A stretch of DNA of 64,000 bases from Escherichia phage UGJNEcP1: the sequence record OV754623. The stretch is one strand, 5' to 3'. Below, in pieces: positions 623 to 55,918 of the stretch (within the stretch, counting starts at the first letter, position 1; every line of letters begins with the position of its first letter). The notes beneath the pieces were generated by a model. It saw only the letters and a list, made by a program, of their open reading frames with translations, was not told where the DNA came from and ran no database searches. The position numbers and the translations under genes are program-made.

Positions 623-1525
623 TTATAGACCAGCTAACAGGTCATCGAGGTCACCATCATCAGAGGATGAGGTAGAGCTCATGAAGTCATCTTCAGTTTT
701 TGCAGAACTAAAGGCTTCCATGTCTTTATCAAAATCGTCAAGGTCAGAAGCAACTTTATCTGCAACAGAAGCTGCGGCAGCTGCTGCACCGCCCAGAGCG
801 GCAGTACCAAGAACCTTAGCGAAAGATTCATTTAATTTTTCAAAGGATTTGAACTGGTCTTTAGCCGTCAAAGTGGTAAGGTCTACCATCTGGTCATATA
901 GTTCTTTCTGGAATGCTTCATCATTAATACGAGGAATTTCAGATTGACCCAAGAATTTAGATTCGTCATAGTTGCTAAAACCAGAAACCTGCTTAGCTTT
1001 CAGAACGAAGTTAGCACCTTCAAATGGACAAGTAACATCAACTGGAGTTTCACCCATTTCGGTATCAACTGCAATCATTGCATTGATTTTGTCCCAAATC
1101 TTTTTACCGAAACGATATTTAAATACTTTACCTTCGTTATCTGGAGCTTGAGGGTCTTTAACAACCAGAATATTAGCCCAATAAGAAGTTTTACGTTTCA
1201 GTTGAGAATATTCAGTTTTGTTGGTATTGTACAGGTCATTTTTAATAATGTACTGACATACAGGACAAGAGTCGTAATCCCCATGTGTAGAAGAGCAATT
1301 TTCAATATACCATTTACCATTTTTCTTGAAACCGTGGTTAACAAGAATTGCAAATGGTAGTGCATCATCAGTTTTTGCTGGCAAGAAACGAATTACCGCT
1401 TGACCATTACCTGATGCATCTAGCTTCAGCTTCCATTCGCCTTTATCTTCTGAAGAGAAACCTTTGTTACCGTTCAGTTTAGCCATTTGAGCAGCGAGGT
1501 CAGCAGTAGATTTACGTTTAAACAT
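623..1525 (-). CDS. 32: single-stranded DNA-binding protein gp32
   Basis: 300 aa; N-terminus MFKRKSTA...[27 protein letters not shown] matches T4 gp32 as I recall it; acidic Ser/Asp-rich C-terminal tail. Confidence 0.95.
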
Positions 1526-1612
1526 TATATTTACCTTTATTTAGATTATTTAATTTATTTACAGTTGGTTGCTACGACACTTATACCTCGTAGCTGGTAT
1601 GTTTTATTTATA
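1526..1612 (-). promoter_or_regulatory. gene 32 leader: AU-rich (U)UAAA repeat operator, hairpin/pseudoknot candidate, and a late-promoter motif
   Basis: minus strand upstream of the AUG reads TAAATAAATTAAATAATCTAAATAAAGG; hairpin GCTACGA-loop-TCGTAGC at 1571-1594; TATAAATA on minus strand at 1605-1612. Confidence 0.5.
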
Positions 1613-1641
1613 AAGTAATTTTAACACGCAAGAAATAAAGC

Positions 1642-2295
1642 TTAATACTTACATGATTTGATTGTTTCTATGAACAATTTCTTAGCAGCATTTCCATCGA
1701 TTTGAAGTATTTTTCGATATGCCTTTAATTTGGTAGAATAATTTTGCCAGACTAAATTGTCGGTAAGTTCGTCATGCTTATCTATAATATTCAAGAATGA
1801 ATCTAACAACAAGAAGGTTTCAAATGAAATTATATTGCTTTGTAGCAATTTAAATATGTAGCTCGACTGAACTTTATTATTATAATCAAATATCTCTTGA
1901 AGCGCACTAACTTCCACTTTCTTACTGAAATAGTAGATGTTACGTACGTCTTCAGCAAACGTCTCCTTGGCTTGTTTGAGACGTCCAATGTATTCCCTAT
2001 AGAAAACTAATGCATCAGCGTCTGATATCTCACCAATCCATGCGTCTTGGTTAGCAACTAAGTTGCTTATGAATATCAAGGTGAGTTCCTTCAATTTATA
2101 TTTCTCTGCTAGTTTTTCAAAGAAATATTTATCTCGGCGTTTTTGATACGCATTATCCGAAACACGCATGCACCAGTTATATTTGATTACGTCATACCGA
2201 CCACCAAAATGGTTTTTGCACATCAAGTATAGTTTATATACTGATTTTCCATTAATATAACGTTCTCCATCAGGAGGCATGCGTATTTTAATCAT
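1642..2295 (-). CDS. 59: helicase loader gp59
   Basis: 217 aa, same length as T4 gp59; position between 33-side and 32. Confidence 0.85.
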   Translation of the reverse strand: MIKIRMPPDGERYINGKSVYKLYLMCKNHFGGRYDVIKYNWCMRVSDNAYQKRRDKYFFEKLAEKYKLKELTLIFISNLVANQDAWIGEISDADALVFYREYIGRLKQAKETFAEDVRNIYYFSKKVEVSALQEIFDYNNKVQSSYIFKLLQSNIISFETFLLLDSFLNIIDKHDELTDNLVWQNYSTKLKAYRKILQIDGNAAKKLFIETIKSCKY

Positions 2296-2971
2296 ATTTC
2301 CATCCGGGCCATTTTGAAGATTTAAGTCTATATGTAACTAAAGACGCAGAAATATTAAAAACATTTGAAACTTCTTTACACGAGGCGTATTTTATACCAT
2401 CAATAGTTATAGGTTTTTGTTTTTTAATAGTCCTTTCTCTAGAATGTGGTTTTGAATTTGCTATTCTAAGAGCTTCTTTAGTGGAATCAGGCATCGCCTT
2501 ATTCGTTTTTCTCCCTTTTCGGACTTTACTCAAGGCCAATTTGTGAGCTTCAGATAGTTTCTTACCCTTATTAGGGGACGGTATTTTTCTTTCTAGTCTT
2601 GTTTTAGATACTTTAGCCTTAGTCTCTTCAGATCTAGGTTTACCTAATTTAGAAAGTGAAATGGCCCTTTTAGCTTCATCACTTTGTTTTTTGCCAGGAC
2701 CACCTTTACCACCGGGAACTAAGTTATAAGTATCATCTCGCAAAACAAAATCTTCATTAACCAATTCTGCTTCTTTTTTATAGGCGTCCTTGTCATTATC
2801 ATATTCATAAAGAATTTCGGTATAAAAATTTTTTAGTCCATATTTAGCTTTGGCCGCTAATATAGCGCGGCCTGATCCAATATACCAATCTTTCTCTTTA
2901 TGTTTTTTATGTACGCCTATATAAATTTTACCATTTATTTTATTGGTAGTTTTATACACAACGTATTTCAT
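2288..2971 (-). CDS. GIY-YIG homing endonuclease (Seg-like free-standing HEG)
   Basis: N-terminal YVVYKTTNKINGKIYIGV GIY-YIG motif; Lys/Arg-rich C-terminal DNA-binding region with NUMOD-like repeats; 8-nt overlap with 59 and 4-nt overlap with 33. Confidence 0.8.
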   Translation of the reverse strand: MKYVVYKTTNKINGKIYIGVHKKHKEKDWYIGSGRAILAAKAKYGLKNFYTEILYEYDNDKDAYKKEAELVNEDFVLRDDTYNLVPGGKGGPGKKQSDEAKRAISLSKLGKPRSEETKAKVSKTRLERKIPSPNKGKKLSEAHKLALSKVRKGRKTNKAMPDSTKEALRIANSKPHSRERTIKKQKPITIDGIKYASCKEVSNVFNISASLVTYRLKSSKWPGWKYD

Positions 2972-47165: not shown

Positions 47166-48065
47166 TTATTCCTCGATTACGACATCTTCGTATTTAGGTA
47201 TATTATACGGTGAAGAAATTAAAGCATTAAAGTAGATGAACTCACCAAGACCTGGATGGAATACTTCTTCAGGATTTTCGAAATATTGAATCTTCGGACG
47301 TCCTTTAAGAATTTGATAGTACTCAGTTTTAGTTGGATTAAAAATTCGAATCAGCGCTTCTTCAGGATACTTATTTCTGTCGAAACTATTATTTGGATCA
47401 GTTATATAAAGCGGTTGACCTAATTGAATTGCGCATTCAACCACTTGTTCAAAACGATAGCATGGGTCACTAATTCGAAATGGATGAAAAATACCATCTA
47501 GATGAATAGGAGCCAAATCACCTACAAGACGCTGCATGACGGAAGGACGTATAACTTTCTGCGTTACGATAATCTTATTACCATCTGCACCTGCGTTAAC
47601 CAGCACTTCTTTTTGACGTTCATTCAACATAGTAGTTTGAAGTGAACGATTAACAGACAACATGTCGGTTTTTAAGAATTCATCAATATAAAAACGTGGT
47701 TTATTAGGGTCTGCAGTGATATTGAAATTGAATTCTACATCAAAAGCGCCGTCATATCCAGTGATATCTGTGATTAGAAAATCACAATCATAATAAGCAA
47801 TTAATGAATCAACCACAAATTCATTTTCAGACCAAAAATATTTACGAGTGTTATACGCGTTATCTTTATACCATAATGGAACAAACTTAAATTCTGGGAA
47901 AAGACGTTCACATTCTTTAATATCAGATGCATTACGTGGATATGTAATCACATCACCCGGATTAGCACGGTGCAAATGAAGTTGGAAGTTGCCATCCTTA
48001 AGGATAGCATACTGTCCAGTTTCATAAGACCGCATACTCAAGATAGGTACGCGGAAAATAGCCAT
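47166..48065 (-). CDS. hypothetical protein in the beta-gt slot (candidate transferase)
   Basis: 299 aa; no confident motif; positional replacement of T4 beta-glucosyltransferase; stop/start abutting neighbours. Confidence 0.5.
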   Translation of the reverse strand: MAIFRVPILSMRSYETGQYAILKDGNFQLHLHRANPGDVITYPRNASDIKECERLFPEFKFVPLWYKDNAYNTRKYFWSENEFVVDSLIAYYDCDFLITDITGYDGAFDVEFNFNITADPNKPRFYIDEFLKTDMLSVNRSLQTTMLNERQKEVLVNAGADGNKIIVTQKVIRPSVMQRLVGDLAPIHLDGIFHPFRISDPCYRFEQVVECAIQLGQPLYITDPNNSFDRNKYPEEALIRIFNPTKTEYYQILKGRPKIQYFENPEEVFHPGLGEFIYFNALISSPYNIPKYEDVVIEE

Positions 48066-48781
48066 TAGTCAAGGAATCCTTTAACATAATCAAAATCACG
48101 TTCAAACACATGGGCACTTACCATGGTATGAGTATAATCACCAACTTCTACACCACATTCGTTAGCGATATAATGAAGTAATTTTCCTTGGAGATAAAAA
48201 TCCAACTGCATAACAACAGCACAGTTCTGGGAACGCATATGACAGTGGGTATAAAGCTTACCATCACGAATATAATAAGTCACTGAGTCAGTACATGGAT
48301 ATTCAAGCGTTTCGTCCGAATCAAGCAAAGCCTGATCAGAACTTTCTAGAATTTGGAACACAACTCTTCGGGAGTTAGGCTTCTCTTTAAGTTCTTTTAG
48401 AAGAGCTGGTAATTGAGCCGCAATGCGAGGGCCATAGAAAGTGTTGAAGTTCGCCGGCAAAACATCTGATTTTGGTTTAGAAATAAATTTAGCGACATTA
48501 GGATATGCCTTAAACGCTTCTTCTGCGTTGGTACCACCAGAAATCATAAACTTCCAGAAGTCTTCGGCATATTCATAAGAGATGCGGTTAATACGTGGGT
48601 CGGTCATTTTGAATGATGATGGAGTGTCAACAACCACTGTCATAGACCCAATTTCATTACAACGTCCAATACGAGAATCAGTTACGAATTCCGGGTTTTC
48701 TAAAATTTCACGATTGACTGCTTTAAATGCGGCTTGAAAATCTGCGGCTTTGATATATTTCATTGTGTTATGTTTTCCCAT
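48065..48781 (-). CDS. 42: thymidylate-synthase-fold pyrimidine C5-modifying enzyme, probable dCMP hydroxymethylase gp42
   Basis: 238 aa; YPCTDSVTYYIRDGKLYTHCHMRSQN has the catalytic-Cys and R/S motifs of the TS/dCMP-hydroxymethylase fold; synteny. Confidence 0.65.
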   Translation of the reverse strand: MGKHNTMKYIKAADFQAAFKAVNREILENPEFVTDSRIGRCNEIGSMTVVVDTPSSFKMTDPRINRISYEYAEDFWKFMISGGTNAEEAFKAYPNVAKFISKPKSDVLPANFNTFYGPRIAAQLPALLKELKEKPNSRRVVFQILESSDQALLDSDETLEYPCTDSVTYYIRDGKLYTHCHMRSQNCAVVMQLDFYLQGKLLHYIANECGVEVGDYTHTMVSAHVFERDFDYVKGFLD

Positions 48782-48823: not shown

Positions 48824-49063
48824 TTATTTGAATTTCTTGACAATGTTGATATAACGTAAAGCTTCAGCATCGATACTTCCAAGAACACTATGAAGAAATG
48901 CATCAGCGTAATATTCTAGTTGAACAGGTTCTTTAATCACTTTAGCCGCTTTAGTTTCAAACAGGCCCATCAGGGCCTTTTTAAGAATTTGTTCGTTAGT
49001 GTTCAGTTTAATAGTCAAAATCTCTTCGTTAAGTTGGTGGTTAAAAGTTTTTCTAGAAATCAT
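48824..49063 (-). CDS. hypothetical small protein
   Basis: 79-aa ORF with ATGA-type overlap with the upstream gene. Confidence 0.45.
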   Translation of the reverse strand: MISRKTFNHQLNEEILTIKLNTNEQILKKALMGLFETKAAKVIKEPVQLEYYADAFLHSVLGSIDAEALRYINIVKKFK

Positions 49064-50220
49064 TCCGGGTACCTCAAAGCGTCATCAGAGTTAGTTATAT
49101 CAATAATAGATATAGAGTTTTCTGCTAACCCGTTTTTAGATAATTGACGTTTATAATATCTTTCACAATATGTACACGTCGTCCCGCAGATTTCATTAGC
49201 ACAATCGAAATCTGGATGTCTGAACCACCTTTTTTCTAAAAAGCCATCTAACAAAGAGGTTTCAATATTTACTGTATGTGAAAACTCAGTTTCGTTTTCA
49301 AGAGTGAAAATAGTCTCTAAAGGCTTCCACAGTTCTAACAAATTACCTTCAAACTTTTCAGAAGCGTATGCTTCAAGAACTTTCAAAATGTAGTCTGTGC
49401 TACCTGTACGTCCTGAAACTTTGAATTGAGTGATACCAATATCATTATAAAGTTTCAAATCTTGAGGACGAACAAAACGAGTTCTCAACCAGTTAAATGG
49501 GTCTGTATCACGAGCTTTAATACAGTGCTGCATAGGATATCCGTTTAAGGATTTAGCATCATCGGCTGTAACATCAGTACTATGGAAAATATAGCAAGAG
49601 TCACGATAGCTACAATGTGTTGTATACCCTTTACCAGCATTAGAACAGAACTCATTTACAAGAACTTCAAATATTATATTGTTCTTATTGCAAAACTCTG
49701 CTGCACGCTTCAGGAAAGAAACTGAACGGTTCTTATGAATTCCACAGCAGACCTTTTTGATATTATATTGGTCATGCAAGTATTTGATTTGAGTTACAGC
49801 ATCGACATGTAGAATTGTTGAAACTTCAATCTCAATGTCTTTATTGACTTCACGAACAATTTCCATAACAACAGGGTTAGCGATAGTAATACGCCATACG
49901 CCTATTGACCAAAGATACTGAACATAATCCTGAATAGCTTTCTTCTTCCACTCAACTAGTTCTCTTTTTGAACCAGGATTTATCGTGTTGAGTGTATAGT
50001 TAAAGCAAATACCTAATTCGTTACAACGTTTAACGTAATCTTCTAACATCTTTTTGTCAACGTCAGGAAGCCTAAAATCAGGTCTGGCTGCTACAAAAGC
50101 CATTTCTCTTGTAGAGCCGTATACTTCATTTATCAAGCTATTAGGATAAGTTTTATTGAGCTCTACGATTTTATCAAGAAGAGCTAAATCAAAATTCGTT
50201 CCGATTTTAAAAGTATTCAT
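49060..50220 (-). CDS. U32-family (collagenase-like / Fe-S hydroxylase-like) enzyme candidate
   Basis: 386 aa; NYTLNTIN and VLVNEFCSNAGKGYTTHCSY resemble U32 TIM-barrel motifs (partial match to the E.F..G..C....G.C..S signature); C-terminal C-x4-C-x3-C-x2-C cluster. Confidence 0.45.
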   Translation of the reverse strand: MNTFKIGTNFDLALLDKIVELNKTYPNSLINEVYGSTREMAFVAARPDFRLPDVDKKMLEDYVKRCNELGICFNYTLNTINPGSKRELVEWKKKAIQDYVQYLWSIGVWRITIANPVVMEIVREVNKDIEIEVSTILHVDAVTQIKYLHDQYNIKKVCCGIHKNRSVSFLKRAAEFCNKNNIIFEVLVNEFCSNAGKGYTTHCSYRDSCYIFHSTDVTADDAKSLNGYPMQHCIKARDTDPFNWLRTRFVRPQDLKLYNDIGITQFKVSGRTGSTDYILKVLEAYASEKFEGNLLELWKPLETIFTLENETEFSHTVNIETSLLDGFLEKRWFRHPDFDCANEICGTTCTYCERYYKRQLSKNGLAENSISIIDITNSDDALRYPE

Positions 50221-50274
50221 TTTTTACATCTCGCGTTAATTGATGCGATGGTTTTTTTGCAGGTCTTACTTAAA

Positions 50275-50679
50275 TTATTGTAGATTCGGTTTATATGATT
50301 TAAATGTTTCGAATTCGCCTTTATTCATAAGAGCTTTGAATTCGTCAGGACGCATAGCTTTGTCGTCGATAATCCAATCATATACTGGTTTATGTGTTAG
50401 CAAATTATGGTACTTCAAGCCAATGTTTGCCAAGTTCTGAATCAGACTTGGGAGAATGTCAATTGCTATACGACCAGGACCTACTGACTTCATACCGCGA
50501 GCAGTGTAAAGCGTTATGGTATGCCCTGCATCATACAGGGCATTAATGGCAGACACCATTTCGACGTCTGGTTTGAAGTTCACGTAATCACGATTGTTAT
50601 TCCACTCTGTTATACAATCATCGACATCAAAACAAAGATTAAGCATGTTTTCTACACGGTGCATTAGATTCGTTCCCAT
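50275..50679 (-). CDS. HAD-superfamily phosphatase-like protein
   Basis: 134 aa; LCFDVDDCIT (DxD motif I), TLYTARG (motif II), IIDDK (motif IV). Confidence 0.55.
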   Translation of the reverse strand: MGTNLMHRVENMLNLCFDVDDCITEWNNNRDYVNFKPDVEMVSAINALYDAGHTITLYTARGMKSVGPGRIAIDILPSLIQNLANIGLKYHNLLTHKPVYDWIIDDKAMRPDEFKALMNKGEFETFKSYKPNLQ

Positions 50680-52349
50680 TGATGAGTGATATCGCCACCG
50701 ATTGGACGATAAGAAACACCAGTTTCTTTATCAGTTAGTACCCATTTACCAGGATTTTTTGTAATCAGAGTAGCCGTTACAGGCTCTGCTACGTCATAAC
50801 TAATAGAGCCGTCTTGAAGTACACGGCCCATGTTACGTAATTGCTTAGTCAGAAGTTCCATACCTTTATAATATGCGGCTACCGCTTTAAGTGGATTATT
50901 CTTGAAATAACCACCTAATGCAATCCAGATAATTGCCACCGCCAAATGATGATACTCGTTAAACGAACTCATCTTTCCATATTTGTAAATTAATGGATTG
51001 ATGTTAATAGTCACATTACAAGTTGTTTCATCAATAGTAAACTGTCCCCAGGTCGGATTAGCATTGAATTCATCATAACCTGAAACAGCATAAAGCACTT
51101 TAGCTTCATCGTACAATTTTGGCCCGTAAATCTTGGTTTCGCCAAAATATCCACGAGGGTCGATAAACTTGACTTCGCCGTTATCAGTAATCATAGTATT
51201 ACTGAAGTTCGGGTCACCGTGAATAACAGAGTACTGTCCCTGAGAACGGTTATGATAACGAATAAGGTGTTCTAAAGCTTGTTTCAGCATTGGCTTCAGA
51301 CGTCCAATCTTAGTGTAGTTCACGTGTGTGATTTTACCAAATGAATCAATCAATGGTTGAATGCTTTCACAACGATCAATAACTTTCGTATAGAATTCTT
51401 TAGTGAAATCACGACGAACAGTTTCAGGACTTACAAAATAAGTGTCTGTGCTGAATTTCAGTGCATCTAAAATTGCATCAACAATTTGTGGACGAGCAAG
51501 ACTTGATTTGGATTTAATATATTCAAATGCCGGCTTACCTTTAATGCGTTCCATTTCAAAGTTATTTTCATTAACAGAAACTAACTGAGGAACTGAATCT
51601 GATTTCACTTTAAGATACCATGAAATCTCATCTTTCTGAAGAGCTCGGCCCTGTTCGGTTAATGCGAATTTAGTTACAGTTTCTTCACCAATTTCAACTG
51701 CATTAAAACTACGATTAAGTTCACGAACTTCATGAGCCTTTTCAAGTTTAGGCATATCACCTAAATCAATTAGATTCATAAGCTCTGATTTATTGAATGC
51801 ACTCCCGTAAAGGAATTCTACAAAATCACGTCCTTTGCAATATTCGTGAATTTCCTCATCAGTAGAACCCATGTAGAATTCCCAGTCTTTGAACTGATAA
51901 ATTCCTACAACATTACCACCTGTTGAACCTACGTTAGTGATATTTTCACCGTCGAAATTATATCGACATTCGTCACCCTTAACATAGATTGCGTTAACAT
52001 TCCAAGACCATGAACCAAAATCAGGAATAATATCACACCAGTTAACAATTACGTTATGGCCGTCTAAATCTTTGTGTAATTTAGCAAGAGCATAAGCAGA
52101 ACCATACGCTTCATCAACTGTACGAATAGTCACATTGAACCCTTCTTGCTCACAATAAGCTCGAACAGTTTCAGCAAATTTTGAATGAACTACTACAATA
52201 ATTTCATCTGCGCCAAGGTCAGAATAAATTGTATACAAATTGCTCAGAATAGTGTCTTGTTTATAGTTAACAAGCACCTTAGGAATATGATGCGTTATTG
52301 GATACAAACGAGTTGCCAGTCCAGCACCAAGAATAACAGCTTTTTTCAT
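50664..52349 (-). CDS. bifunctional sugar-1-phosphate nucleotidyltransferase / APH-like sugar kinase
   Basis: 561 aa; N-terminal MKKAVILGAGLATRLYPITHHIPKVLV (nucleotidyltransferase G-loop); C-terminal VIHGDPNFSNTMI...FIDPRGYFGE (HGD...N and ID motifs of the aminoglycoside/choline-kinase fold). Confidence 0.75.
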   Translation of the reverse strand: MKKAVILGAGLATRLYPITHHIPKVLVNYKQDTILSNLYTIYSDLGADEIIVVVHSKFAETVRAYCEQEGFNVTIRTVDEAYGSAYALAKLHKDLDGHNVIVNWCDIIPDFGSWSWNVNAIYVKGDECRYNFDGENITNVGSTGGNVVGIYQFKDWEFYMGSTDEEIHEYCKGRDFVEFLYGSAFNKSELMNLIDLGDMPKLEKAHEVRELNRSFNAVEIGEETVTKFALTEQGRALQKDEISWYLKVKSDSVPQLVSVNENNFEMERIKGKPAFEYIKSKSSLARPQIVDAILDALKFSTDTYFVSPETVRRDFTKEFYTKVIDRCESIQPLIDSFGKITHVNYTKIGRLKPMLKQALEHLIRYHNRSQGQYSVIHGDPNFSNTMITDNGEVKFIDPRGYFGETKIYGPKLYDEAKVLYAVSGYDEFNANPTWGQFTIDETTCNVTININPLIYKYGKMSSFNEYHHLAVAIIWIALGGYFKNNPLKAVAAYYKGMELLTKQLRNMGRVLQDGSISYDVAEPVTATLITKNPGKWVLTDKETGVSYRPIGGDITHQWERI

Positions 52350-52390
52350 GTTGAAGTCCTCATTGGTAAGTAGGAGTATTGTACACTATT

Positions 52391-52534
52391 CTAGTTAAAG
52401 CATTCATACTTTGCTTGTAGTCCAATCATAATCCATCCGATTATAAGAGTCGGAATCATTACCGGAGCCGTTAAGCTCCAGTAGATAGTCATGACAAGCA
52501 TCAATAGTAAAAGTCCTATTGTTATTGCTTTCAT
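52391..52534 (-). CDS. small hydrophobic peptide
   Basis: 47-aa ORF MKAITIGLLLLMLVMTIYWSL...; ATGA overlap with the SIS gene stop; below track cutoff. Confidence 0.3.
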   Translation of the reverse strand: MKAITIGLLLLMLVMTIYWSLTAPVMIPTLIIGWIMIGLQAKYECFN

Positions 52535-53166
52535 TGTTCGCCTCGTAACATGGCACCTAGTGCACCGCCTGGATGGAACTTAAGGAAGTCATTAGAGGTA
52601 AATCCACGTTCAGACGAAAGGTTGATAGCAAACGTATCGATAAGCGCTAACAACAATGTAGTGGACATAGTCGGAGCCAGAGAATTCTCATCAACCTCTA
52701 CCGCGATGCCTGTACAGAAAGAGTAATCAAAAAGGGCTTCATTTTCTTGCGGAATGTCTGGGTTACAATGCAACAGAATCTGTTTGACGTTCGGTCGAAT
52801 CATTTTAAGATGCTTAGCCACGCCTATCATTTCTTCAGTTTTACCAGAACGACTAATATGAATCAACACATCATTAGGCGCAATGAATCCTGCGTCACCG
52901 TGAGAATAATGTCCAGTGTTCAAGTACATACTCGGGATACCGAGTGAAGCAAATGTCTCAGAAGCTTTAGTTGCAATATTAGCATTCTTACCAACACCTG
53001 TAATAATTACTCGGCTTTCATAATTACTAAGTCCAGGGCGTCGAAGAGTTTCTAGAATAGCATTATAACGAGCAGGGTTTTGACTAATTACTTTGGCCAT
53101 AGCGGCCAAAGAAGAAGCTTGTTTTATGATTGCGTCAATAGCGATAGTAATAGGAGTAGTTTTCAT
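52531..53166 (-). CDS. SIS-domain sugar-phosphate isomerase (arabinose-5-phosphate isomerase / GmhA-like)
   Basis: 211 aa; ITGVGKNANIA and HISRSGKTEE are canonical SIS phosphosugar-binding motifs; no CBS domains. Confidence 0.75.
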   Translation of the reverse strand: MKTTPITIAIDAIIKQASSLAAMAKVISQNPARYNAILETLRRPGLSNYESRVIITGVGKNANIATKASETFASLGIPSMYLNTGHYSHGDAGFIAPNDVLIHISRSGKTEEMIGVAKHLKMIRPNVKQILLHCNPDIPQENEALFDYSFCTGIAVEVDENSLAPTMSTTLLLALIDTFAINLSSERGFTSNDFLKFHPGGALGAMLRGEQ

Positions 53167-53206
53167 ATTTCTCTCATTTAATTAGTTTACCGTCCATGGC
53201 ATTATA

Positions 53207-55918
53207 TCAAAAATCGAACATATCGAACAGAGATGCTTTCTTCTCGTAATCGAGTTTCGCTGCTGATGTGAATCCTTCAAGTGGTTTAATAAATGTCTTC
53301 TCAAGGAGAACAGTGTAGTCCATCCAATGAAGTACGTCGTCTTTAATTAAATCTGTGATTTCCGTACCAGAAGGCCATGCGATACATTTATCACCGAATG
53401 GGTTTCCATCACGTAAAGGCAGAACGTATACCTTTTCGCCTTCTACAACTTGTGGAGCATCAATATTACCTTTGATAGCTCGGTTATATGTCAGAATTCC
53501 ACGAATATGGAACGGGCATTTAGGTCCTGGATATCCACCTACATCATATTTAGCAATGTTATTCGCAGAAGATACCGACGCGATGCTAATATAATTCAAT
53601 TGACGGAATTCTTTTTCAAACTCTTTAAAATATTCTTGTAATGATTCTTCACCTTCTTGAAGCATACGACGAATACATTCTTTAAGAGCTTTCTGTACTG
53701 CTTTAGGAGTCGAAGATTTCTGAGTCTCTAGACCCATGATTTTGAGTTTAGGCTCAGCGTAACGAGTACCTTCCATATCCCACACGTTTAATGCATAACG
53801 TTTCTTACCAGTCCAGAATCCACCAATACCTTTAGAACCGAGCGGAGGTCCAGCGATAGCTTCTCGGTCCATGAACATTAAGTGTTGTTTATTGTTCATG
53901 TATTCACACATTTCACGGAAACCTTTATCAATAGCTGGTTCCATACGTTCACGTGCAAACTTATCTAAGAAGTCTACCCAATGGTTGGTATCACGGAATT
54001 TAGATTCACCAACCTTATCGATAATTTTATCAGCAGATACGTAAATAGAGTCTGTATCACCATAAAGAACGAAAGCTTCACCTTCTGTGCCACAAACTTC
54101 ATTCAGATATTCATTAACTTTACGTTCAATCCACTGTAAAGCCATTTGACCAAATGTTGTGATTGCAGTTGCATTACGCAAATCGTAATAACGGAACCAA
54201 ACGTTGCCAAGTGCACCATAAAGCGAGTTGATGAGCAATTTACGGTTAATCTGTGCAGTCATACCTGCAACTTCAGTACGTTGAGCTCTAAACAACATTT
54301 CATTAAGAGATTTAGCAGACAACTTTTTAATCTTTTCTTTAATCTCATCGCTGAAGTCGAAACGATAATCAACATCTAATGGTTCGTCAACAGAAAGATT
54401 AGGATTATGCAATGCCTCTTTAATTATTTCACCATTACGTTGAGCTGCAAGCATGTAACCTTTATGTTCTTTACGTTGATTAAAGACCTTAGTTATTTCA
54501 GTTGGAACTACACCATCACGGTCTTTATAATACATCATGCCGTTAGGAGAACAACTGTACACATCTGAAGGACGTTCAGCGATTGCGTTAATATAATCAT
54601 GCAATGGAGCTACTTTAAACGTTCCTGCTATTGTTTCCGGGCTAATATTCACTTGGCGAATAATACTTGGATACAGAGATGTAAGGTCGAAACTCATTAC
54701 ATATTTGTATCGATTTGGAATAGGTTCCTTAACAAAAGCACCCGGGTAAGGTTGAACTGGATGCGAACGACCTTGTGGAATCACCTTGTTTTGTTCTTTA
54801 AGGCTATTAAAAATAATAGCGTCCCAAGTTTTAATTGGACTGAACACAGATTGAATCTGAATTTTAGCATAATAACCCATGTCCAAACTCAAGTTGATGA
54901 ACTGACGCTTAGCATCAATTTGCAATACACGATACACGTCGATAATGTTATAAGAAATATATCGTTGGTGATTGCTTTCACGAAGCTTAGAAATAGGGCC
55001 GTCATATTTCAGTTTACCAACGTTCAATTCAAATTCTGAAATGTAATCCAGAGAATACGACGGTTGATTAGTAAAAGAGAATTTTTTGTAAAGGTCGATG
55101 TAATCAAGAACAGAGATACCGAACAATGTAATGATTTCACGAGAACCATACATGTTTTCGATAACTTTAACACGAGTTTTACGATGTGGTGATAAACGTT
55201 TCGCAGTAGATTCGCCAAAAATATTCTTGATTCGGTTATACACATATGGAATATCAAATGACTCAACGTTCCATCCGGTTAAAATGACAGGAGTTTTCTG
55301 TTGCCAGAAGTTGAGATATTCCATCAACAATTCTTTTTCGTTATCGAACGGCATATAAACGATTTTATCGATAATTTCAGATGGAACCTCATCACCACCT
55401 TGTTCTTGAAGCTTAGCAGCGATTTCAATAGACCATTCTTCTACATTACCGTATGGAGAATTCAATAGATCAAATACGTAGAACCTGTCGTCAATTGAGT
55501 CATAATGGGTGATAGCATCAATCGGATGTTTTGCTTGTGACGGCTCAGGGAACCCGTCCGGAGATGTTACTTCGATGTCGAAGTTAGCCACACGAATTTT
55601 TGTATGGTCGTATTTGATTTCATAGTTATAAGTGTCAGACAAATACGCCAATTTGAAATCGTCCATGCCAAGTGCTTCAAGTCCGATATCTTCCATGCGT
55701 TTAATCCATTGGGAGGCATCACGCATATTAGCGAACAACTTACGAGTACACGGCTTACCGTAGATATCGAAATATTTCGTAGCCTGACTTTCCGGACAAT
55801 GAGCAAACAGTGATGGTTTATATTCTACTTCACGAGTACGTTCACGGCCATTAGAATCGATGTAACGTTCAAAAATTGAATCACCAATCTGTTCAACCGT
55901 TAAGTAAAATTCTTTCAT
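53207..55918 (-). CDS. 43: DNA polymerase gp43 (family B)
   Basis: 903 aa; N-terminus MKEFYLTVEQIGDSIFERYIDSNGRERTRE matches RB69 gp43 as recalled; exonuclease FDIE and polymerase YGDTDS motifs. Confidence 0.97.
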   Translation of the reverse strand: MKEFYLTVEQIGDSIFERYIDSNGRERTREVEYKPSLFAHCPESQATKYFDIYGKPCTRKLFANMRDASQWIKRMEDIGLEALGMDDFKLAYLSDTYNYEIKYDHTKIRVANFDIEVTSPDGFPEPSQAKHPIDAITHYDSIDDRFYVFDLLNSPYGNVEEWSIEIAAKLQEQGGDEVPSEIIDKIVYMPFDNEKELLMEYLNFWQQKTPVILTGWNVESFDIPYVYNRIKNIFGESTAKRLSPHRKTRVKVIENMYGSREIITLFGISVLDYIDLYKKFSFTNQPSYSLDYISEFELNVGKLKYDGPISKLRESNHQRYISYNIIDVYRVLQIDAKRQFINLSLDMGYYAKIQIQSVFSPIKTWDAIIFNSLKEQNKVIPQGRSHPVQPYPGAFVKEPIPNRYKYVMSFDLTSLYPSIIRQVNISPETIAGTFKVAPLHDYINAIAERPSDVYSCSPNGMMYYKDRDGVVPTEITKVFNQRKEHKGYMLAAQRNGEIIKEALHNPNLSVDEPLDVDYRFDFSDEIKEKIKKLSAKSLNEMLFRAQRTEVAGMTAQINRKLLINSLYGALGNVWFRYYDLRNATAITTFGQMALQWIERKVNEYLNEVCGTEGEAFVLYGDTDSIYVSADKIIDKVGESKFRDTNHWVDFLDKFARERMEPAIDKGFREMCEYMNNKQHLMFMDREAIAGPPLGSKGIGGFWTGKKRYALNVWDMEGTRYAEPKLKIMGLETQKSSTPKAVQKALKECIRRMLQEGEESLQEYFKEFEKEFRQLNYISIASVSSANNIAKYDVGGYPGPKCPFHIRGILTYNRAIKGNIDAPQVVEGEKVYVLPLRDGNPFGDKCIAWPSGTEITDLIKDDVLHWMDYTVLLEKTFIKPLEGFTSAAKLDYEKKASLFDMFDF

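Follow-up and report, generated by a model that had tools for sequence, protein, structure and literature searches.

afhF, a gene for a probable cap-less HAD phosphatase adjoining afhE in the RB69-like Escherichia phage UGJNEcP1

The small gene at 50275..50679 on the minus strand of the window (the whole stretch of DNA analysed, 64,000 nucleotides) is, by its sequence, afhF, the orthologue of RB69 gp51 and of AfhF of phage HY126. Its product is very probably a phage HAD phosphatase, dependent on Mg2+, that works in the UDP-D-arabinofuranose pathway feeding 5-hydroxycytosine arabinosylation in RB69-like phages. The identity of the gene, the fold, the motifs, the genetic context and the conservation of the junction with the upstream gene come from the present analysis, while the substrate and the order of the steps are taken from the literature and from the title of a PDB entry. 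The gene, the pathway, the enzyme activity and a crystal structure were published in 2025-2026 and the orthologue had already been named, so the finding brings no new biology. Mildly new are a corrected start codon and junction, a Shine-Dalgarno-like element inside the conserved C-terminus of afhE, and the recognition of a misannotation.

A 6.8-kb stretch around the gene matches Escherichia phage UGJNEcP2 at 100% identity and, across the cluster, RB69 at 98.2%; in each of 151 phage records one match spans at least 80% of it. The window is that of an RB69-like Mosigvirus. The cluster is flanked by the genes for gp43 DNA polymerase and UvsX, and all genes between these two lie on the minus strand (Table 1). 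The open reading frame picked out in an earlier, sequence-only reading of this DNA is present as described. It runs from ATG to stop, encodes 134 aa in its longest form and corresponds to RB69 gp51 (RB69p051; ORF051c in RB69 coordinates). It is a true gene and no chance ORF, since it has 48 database homologues, 383 phage records contain a match, and an identical protein has been crystallised. Residues 6-133 of the long ORF (128 residues) are identical to chain A of PDB entry 9iqw, which, as retrieved through Foldseek, carries the title 'phage HY126 encoded D-arabinose 1,5-diphosphate phosphatase AfhF' and the release date 2025-07-16. Lee et al. (NAR 2026, PMC13326640) treat RB69 gp51 and the HY126 protein AfhF as equivalent, and gp81 of Acinetobacter phage DLP3 is the counterpart of both. 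RB69, Bas46 and the related locus L012 end the gene with a tandem stop (CTA TAA TAA). In the window the first TAA reads CAA, adding one C-terminal Gln before the next TAA (50275..50280, minus strand), and this extra residue is the sole difference from the crystallised HY126 protein.

The upstream neighbour, afhE, encodes a protein with a Pfam NTP_transferase match at residues 3-99, weak APH/fructosamine-kinase matches at 350-405 and NCBIfam nucleotidyltransferase matches, MurU among them; against PDB sequences it gave a distant cytidylyltransferase match only, with no solved identical protein. The RB69 reference has afhE split into ORF052c/ORF053c and the glycosyltransferase gene into ORF046c/ORF047c, splits that have been reported as sequencing errors (PMC13326640), and both genes are intact in the window. 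The product of the isomerase gene matched Pfam SIS (1e-10) and NCBIfam KpsF (2e-32) and KdsD (7e-31), and the RB69 annotation agrees. The gp48 protein is near-identical to PDB entries 9iqc, 9ir2 and 9iqu and makes 5-hydroxy-dCMP, which is later arabinosylated in DNA (PMC13326640). The putative arabinosyltransferase gp46:47 had no Pfam match and no PDB sequence match.

Directly downstream of afhF lies gp50, a U32 'peptidase'-family protein with a weak NCBIfam UbiU match, a CGTTCTYC (CxxxCxxC) motif at its C-terminal end and no match among PDB sequences. Two other members of the U32 family are RlhA, needed for 5-hydroxycytidine in 23S rRNA (PMC5727448), and TrhP, with a part in forming tRNA ho5U (PMC6599085); in PMC13326640 gp50 figures only under 'sugar or heterocycle reductase', with no tie drawn to these hydroxylases. 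The protein could provide an oxygen-independent route to 5-hydroxycytosine, complementing the O2-dependent ThyA-like hydroxylase. Its gene was found in the Mosigvirus, Winklervirus, Marfavirus and PM2 loci, and none was seen within about 3 kb in JS98, IME523 or any of the Acinetobacter phage loci.

A 47-aa hydrophobic ORF (MKAITIGLLLLMLVMTIYWSL...; 52391..52534, minus strand) lies between the isomerase gene and afhE and overlaps the isomerase stop by 4 nt. A counterpart small ORF is annotated at this position in Bas46, CHI14, Kc304 and RB69 (ORF054c, shorter).

Table 1. Features of the afhF locus in the window. Residue numbers are those of the 134-aa ORF unless stated otherwise.
Feature	Position	Strand	Remarks
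afhF coding sequence, best-supported start	50275..50664	-	ATG 50664..50662, stop 50277..50275, 129 aa
Extra 15 nt of the longest ORF (MGTNL)	50665..50679	-	probably untranslated in AfhF
TAATG junction	50662..50666	-	last A of the afhE stop TAA (50666..50664) is also the first base of the afhF ATG (50664..50662)
In-frame ATG	50679	-	16-nt overlap with afhE stop
In-frame ATG	50664	-	1-nt overlap with afhE stop (TAATG)
In-frame ATG	50646	-	17-nt gap from afhE stop
Weak SD-like GGGAA	50673..50677	-	8 nt upstream of ATG 50664, in the Trp-Glu codons of the afhE C-terminal QWERI
HAD motif I, D18-V-D20	50620..50628	-	D13 and D15 when counted from ATG 50664; putative nucleophile Asp and acid/base Asp
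HAD motif II region, T59-A-R61-G62 (TARG)	50494..50505	-	T59, R61 and G62 invariant
K97, candidate HAD motif III lysine	50389..50391	-	invariant, P98 next; assigned by position
HAD motif IV, D105-D106 in IIDDK	50362..50367	-	putative Mg2+-binding acidic pair; invariant columns
Putative DNA arabinosyltransferase 1 (RB69 gp46:47)	47166..48065	-	intact, 299 aa; assigned from Table 1 of PMC13326640
Thymidylate-synthase-like dCMP 5-hydroxylase (RB69 gp48)	48065..48781	-	Pfam Thymidylat_synt
U32 'peptidase'-family protein (RB69 gp50)	49060..50220	-	Pfam PF01136, 7e-11
afhE (RB69 gp52:53)	50664..52349	-	intact, 561 aa; N-terminal sugar-1-P nucleotidyltransferase and C-terminal APH-like kinase
Arabinose-5-phosphate isomerase (RB69 gp55), SIS, KpsF/GutQ/KdsD-like	52531..53166	-	would supply Araf5P from ribulose-5-P

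Fold, motifs and closest relatives

The sequence-only reading had proposed a minimal cap-less HAD phosphatase from the motifs FDVDD, TARG and IIDDK. These fall at residues 17-21, 59-62 and 103-107 of the long ORF, on columns that do not vary among 25 aligned homologues, the most distant at 35% identity; the invariant positions are D18, D20, T59, R61, G62, K97, D105 and D106. Motif I reads F-D18-V-D20-D-C-I-T, with Cys at the place of the usual Thr that most relatives have (DIDNTIT). The protein combines a motif I of the DxDx(T/V) type, a motif II Ser/Thr, a motif III Lys and a motif IV DD pair with a Rossmann-like core fold, and its chain of about 129 aa amounts to little more than the HAD core and lacks a separate cap domain. 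If the residues play the parts known from established HAD chemistry, an aspartyl-phosphate intermediate would form on the first Asp of DVDD and the second Asp would serve as acid/base, while Thr59 and Lys97 would bind the phosphoryl group and Asp105/Asp106 would hold the Mg2+.

AlphaFold2, given the family alignment, produced a model (pLDDT 82.8) that matched almost only HAD enzymes. Foldseek against the PDB returned 9iqw first, followed by 1xpj, two GmhB structures, PNKP phosphatase domains and HisB-N. The predicted fold thus lies inside the HAD superfamily, and the outcome that had been named beforehand as fatal to the assignment, a fold outside it, was not what the model gave. Curated sequence models were less telling. 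A Pfam scan of the 134-aa protein found no family at E <= 0.1, and the best NCBIfam match, to the capsule biosynthesis phosphatase family TIGR01689 (E 4.4e-13), scored 49.3 bits against a cut-off of 162; the NCBIfam HAD-IIIA match was faint (14.6 bits, cut-off 44.6). For the curated HAD models the protein is too divergent, and its placement in the superfamily relies on fold and motifs. AfhF is a sister group related to TIGR01689, not a member of it.

In the PDB sequence search the next match after 9iqw was 1xpj from Vibrio cholerae, and EcbF/BcbF-type proteins of TIGR01689, which 1xpj represents structurally, are the closest cellular relatives of AfhF, at about 28-30% identity. 1xpj and AfhF share the four motifs and a HAD core of roughly 125 aa to which no separate cap is added, but EcbF and 1xpj sit in bacterial capsule loci and AfhF in a phage DNA-modification cluster. 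The family profile, run against PDB sequences, reached only 9iqw and 1xpj and missed both GmhB and KdsC, so that kinship with either of these is a matter of structure. GmhB, the D-glycero-D-manno-heptose-1,7-bisphosphate 7-phosphatase, has no detectable sequence homology to AfhF beyond the HAD motifs and, unlike AfhF, is about 180 aa long with extra loops and a Zn site; AfhF is not a member of the GmhB family. The Kdo-8-phosphate phosphatase KdsC resembles AfhF in being a small HAD phosphatase that acts downstream of an arabinose-5-P isomerase in its own pathway, that of sugar-acid metabolism. Kinship with KdsC/YrbI was considered and rejected, there being no sequence or close structural similarity (in the Foldseek PDB search KdsC appeared only at E about 0.08). 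The likeness in size to KdsC that had been suggested earlier did not hold up either: at 129 aa AfhF is clearly smaller than the KdsC chains of 170-180 residues, and KdsC is not its closest relative.

Start codon and junction with afhE

Three in-frame ATG codons, at 50679, 50664 and 50646, precede the first catalytic Asp. The most likely start of afhF is the ATG at 50664, giving a protein of 129 aa. It is preferred because it is conserved across genera, because its equivalent is the start annotated in the RB69 RefSeq record, and because its Met is the first native residue of the crystallised 9iqw construct. The practical gain is a gene model corrected to a TAATG overlap of one nucleotide. The 16-nt overlap given in the sequence-only reading applies to the most upstream ATG only. 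That reading had also placed the overlap, in its heading, between the 3' end of the small gene and the start of the kinase gene, which is the reverse of what is found, the 5' end of afhF overlapping the 3' end of afhE; its reasoning, by which the upstream gene overlaps the small one, had the direction right.

It seems unlikely that the real product is the full 134-aa ORF read from 50679. This is the longest ORF, Bas46 and JS98 are annotated with a start of that type, and an ATG occurs at the position in several genera. Against this, the 50679 ATG arises as CA-ATG-G from the conserved Gln-Trp codons of afhE and looks like a by-product of them: its equivalent is GTG where the Gln codon is CAG (loci L015 and L020) and TTG where the residue is His (phage Lazarus), and loci without an overlap between the two genes lack an ATG of this type. 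In Pectobacterium phage PM2, where the genes do not overlap, the sole possible start gives MHRVEN..., the counterpart of the 50664 start. No SD-like sequence precedes the 50679 ATG, and the five extra residues are predicted to be disordered (pLDDT below 50 for residues 1-7 of the long ORF in the AlphaFold2 model).

A start at Met-12 (50646) was considered as most homologues are 119-121 aa long. It was rejected as the main model because the N-terminus of the short homologues begins at the ATG that overlaps the stop. In Mosigvirus, JS98 and PM2 an insertion of 7-8 residues follows the stop-overlapping ATG, and PM2 lacks a Met where Met-12 would fall.

The comparison of the junction drew on 9 annotated phages and 11 IMG/VR contigs, together 20 loci and 18 distinct sequences besides the window. 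An overlap of one nucleotide was found in 11 of the 18, of 4 nt in two (ATGA/GTGA, L018 and L019) and of 17 nt in one. The sharing of a single base between stop and ATG occurs in Mosigvirus (the window, RB69, Bas46, L012), Kosakonia phage Kc304, JS98 and L016, Enterobacter phage IME523, Acinetobacter phage Lazarus, L015 and L020. The 17-nt case is Serratia phage CHI14 (L003/L014, 3001..3017), where the afhE stop TAA has changed to TCA, lengthening AfhE by five residues and the overlap from 1 to 17 nt. PM2, Acj9 and Potts1 have gaps of 52-117 nt between the two genes and no overlap, and in L021 an insertion of 1.7 kb (735..2485) parts them; in 19 of the 20 close loci afhE is directly upstream of afhF, and in L021 it lies 1.7 kb upstream. 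Thus the overlap for which related phages were to be checked proved common, but it is mostly of 1 nt and not 16, and four lineages have a gap or an insertion instead. In CHI14, a segB-like endonuclease gene is inserted immediately after afhF.

Since the 50664 ATG shares one base with the afhE stop, ribosomes that end AfhE may re-initiate on afhF through TAATG, and the two genes may be translationally coupled. The co-stoichiometric expression suggested in the sequence-only reading is conjectural and finds no support in the present results. The element upstream of this ATG is GGGAA in the enterobacterial phages and GGGAG in Acinetobacter phage Lazarus, and from its sequence and position it may serve as a Shine-Dalgarno element. 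Points against coupling are the weakness of this element, the four lineages with gaps of 52-117 nt or an insertion, and the predicted folding of the RNA, which in a 100-nt stretch around the junction showed nothing unusual (z = -0.99), so that occlusion of the start site by structure cannot be claimed. A promoter and terminator scan of 49900-53300 gave no enrichment over shuffles. As judged from the junction sequences, tight afhE-afhF coupling is common, not universal.

Substrate and order of the steps

RB69 DNA carries mono- and di-arabinosylated 5-hydroxycytosine; the arabinosyl-hydroxymethylcytosine first reported for it in 2018 has been corrected (PMC13326640). The pathway gives RB69-like phages arabinosylated 5-hydroxycytosine DNA, which shields them from restriction enzymes and CRISPR. 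The afhF locus of the window has what such a pathway calls for: afhE adjoins afhF, and the genes for an arabinose-5-phosphate isomerase, a dCMP hydroxylase of the ThyA type and a DNA glycosyltransferase are nearby. The earlier view that the small gene belongs to a pathway for sugar nucleotides and is tightly linked to the kinase/nucleotidyltransferase gene stands.

For the substrate and the order of steps we relied on the title of 9iqw and on the summary by Lee et al. (PMC13326640) of He et al. (2026, Nat Chem Biol). According to that summary, AfhE is a D-arabinose-5-phosphate kinase that is also a UDP-arabinose pyrophosphorylase and whose kinase domain acts first, turning Araf5P into Araf-1,5-P2, and AfhF is the Mg2+-dependent phosphatase that converts Araf-1,5-P2 to Araf-1-P. 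The practical gain is a defined order, kinase first and then a phosphatase acting on the bisphosphate. Under this scheme, the SIS isomerase gp55 would make arabinose-5-P from host ribulose-5-P, the C-terminal kinase domain of AfhE would phosphorylate the anomeric position to yield Araf-1,5-bisphosphate, and AfhF would strip one phosphate to leave Araf-1-P. The N-terminal nucleotidyltransferase domain of AfhE would then form UDP-Araf, from which the DNA arabinosyltransferases would transfer the sugar onto 5-hydroxy-dC. By analogy with GmhB, the phosphate that AfhF takes off is presumably the 5-phosphate.

The analogy lies in the role, that of a bisphosphate phosphatase between a kinase and a nucleotidyltransferase step. 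In ADP-heptose synthesis the GmhA isomerase, the HldE kinase, the bisphosphate phosphatase GmhB and the HldE adenylyltransferase act in turn, the kinase and the transferase being fused in HldE and the HAD phosphatase separate. The kinase of AfhE is APH-like and that of HldE ribokinase-like, and the sugar is a pentofuranose in the AfhF pathway and a heptose in the GmhB pathway.

A more elaborate arrangement can be envisaged, in which a conserved termination-reinitiation signal (TAATG/ATGA plus an SD element in the QWE(R/K)I codons) makes AfhF synthesis dependent on AfhE translation and an AfhE-AfhF complex channels Araf-1,5-bisphosphate between the two active sites of AfhE. We regard this combined proposal as speculative and rather doubtful. 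If true, reinitiation and channeling would add a new mechanistic detail to a known pathway, not a new system, and would be of modest interest.

The sequence-only reading had put the phosphatase ahead of the kinase. On that route AfhF would convert arabinose-5-phosphate to free D-arabinose, and the APH-like domain would then phosphorylate C1 in the manner of AmgK. The kinase domain of AfhE does have an APH-like signature, its N-terminal domain resembles MurU, and AmgK, the natural partner of MurU, acts on a free sugar (MurNAc). Moreover, Table 1 of PMC13326640 keeps this step, as an older putative 'Araf5P to Ara', for RB69p051 and DLP3_081. The same paper's text, where it cites He et al., attributes A5P kinase activity to AfhE and gives Araf-1,5-P2 as the substrate of AfhF, and the title given in the PDB to the identical protein names a D-arabinose 1,5-diphosphate phosphatase; both contradict the free-arabinose route. 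In the structural search with the model, the neighbours among named sugar-phosphate phosphatases include the bisphosphate phosphatase GmhB. Dephosphorylation to free arabinose was a reasonable prior that has been overtaken by experiment, and we now consider it very improbable. Least credible of all is a nucleic-acid or nucleotide phosphatase (a PNKP-like 3'-phosphatase or a 5'(3')-deoxyribonucleotidase-like enzyme) acting on DNA ends or dNMP pools. The likeness of AfhF to such enzymes does not exceed its likeness to the remaining cap-less HAD enzymes; the T4 polynucleotide kinase 3'-phosphatase domain and Pnkp1, at 12-15% identity, have nucleic-acid 3'-phosphates as substrates and form fusions with a kinase domain. 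The gene is always accompanied by afhE and the isomerase gene and not by repair genes, and the identical protein has, by the 9iqw title and the Lee et al. summary, already been assigned sugar-bisphosphate activity.

Database labels and wider viral homologues

The RefSeq entry RB69p051, PHROG 1238 (phrog_1238) and many phage records carry the label 'phosphoheptose isomerase' (GmhA). The label is wrong for the AfhF family, because the fold is HAD and not SIS, and the Pfam scan gave no SIS match; it is a propagated misnomer, and its correction is a further practical gain. The orthologue in the BASEL phage Bas46 is annotated 'putative phosphatase' and stands beside a gene annotated in UDP-arabinose biosynthesis. 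Other records name proteins of the family 'polynucleotide kinase' or 'capsule biosynthesis protein', and the isomerase label is also attached to cyanophage genes, PSSM2_311 and SSSM7_130 for example.

AfhF-like HAD proteins of 97-111 aa with 35-44% identity are encoded by more than 490 further viral contigs, cyanomyoviruses and giant-virus bins among them (IMG/VR and cyanophage loci, including L010, L011 and L022-L091). These contigs have the AfhF-like gene without an AfhE homologue, and the gene overlaps its neighbours by a few bases. In three sampled AfhE-less loci, Pfam identified class II aldolase, NeuB, GT61 and NTP-transferase genes as neighbours, and annotation places a carbohydrate kinase and a nucleotidyltransferase near the AfhF-like gene in the records of P-SSM2 and S-SSM7. 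Such AfhE-less genes may mark other viral sugar-nucleotide pathways that proceed through a phosphorylated intermediate.
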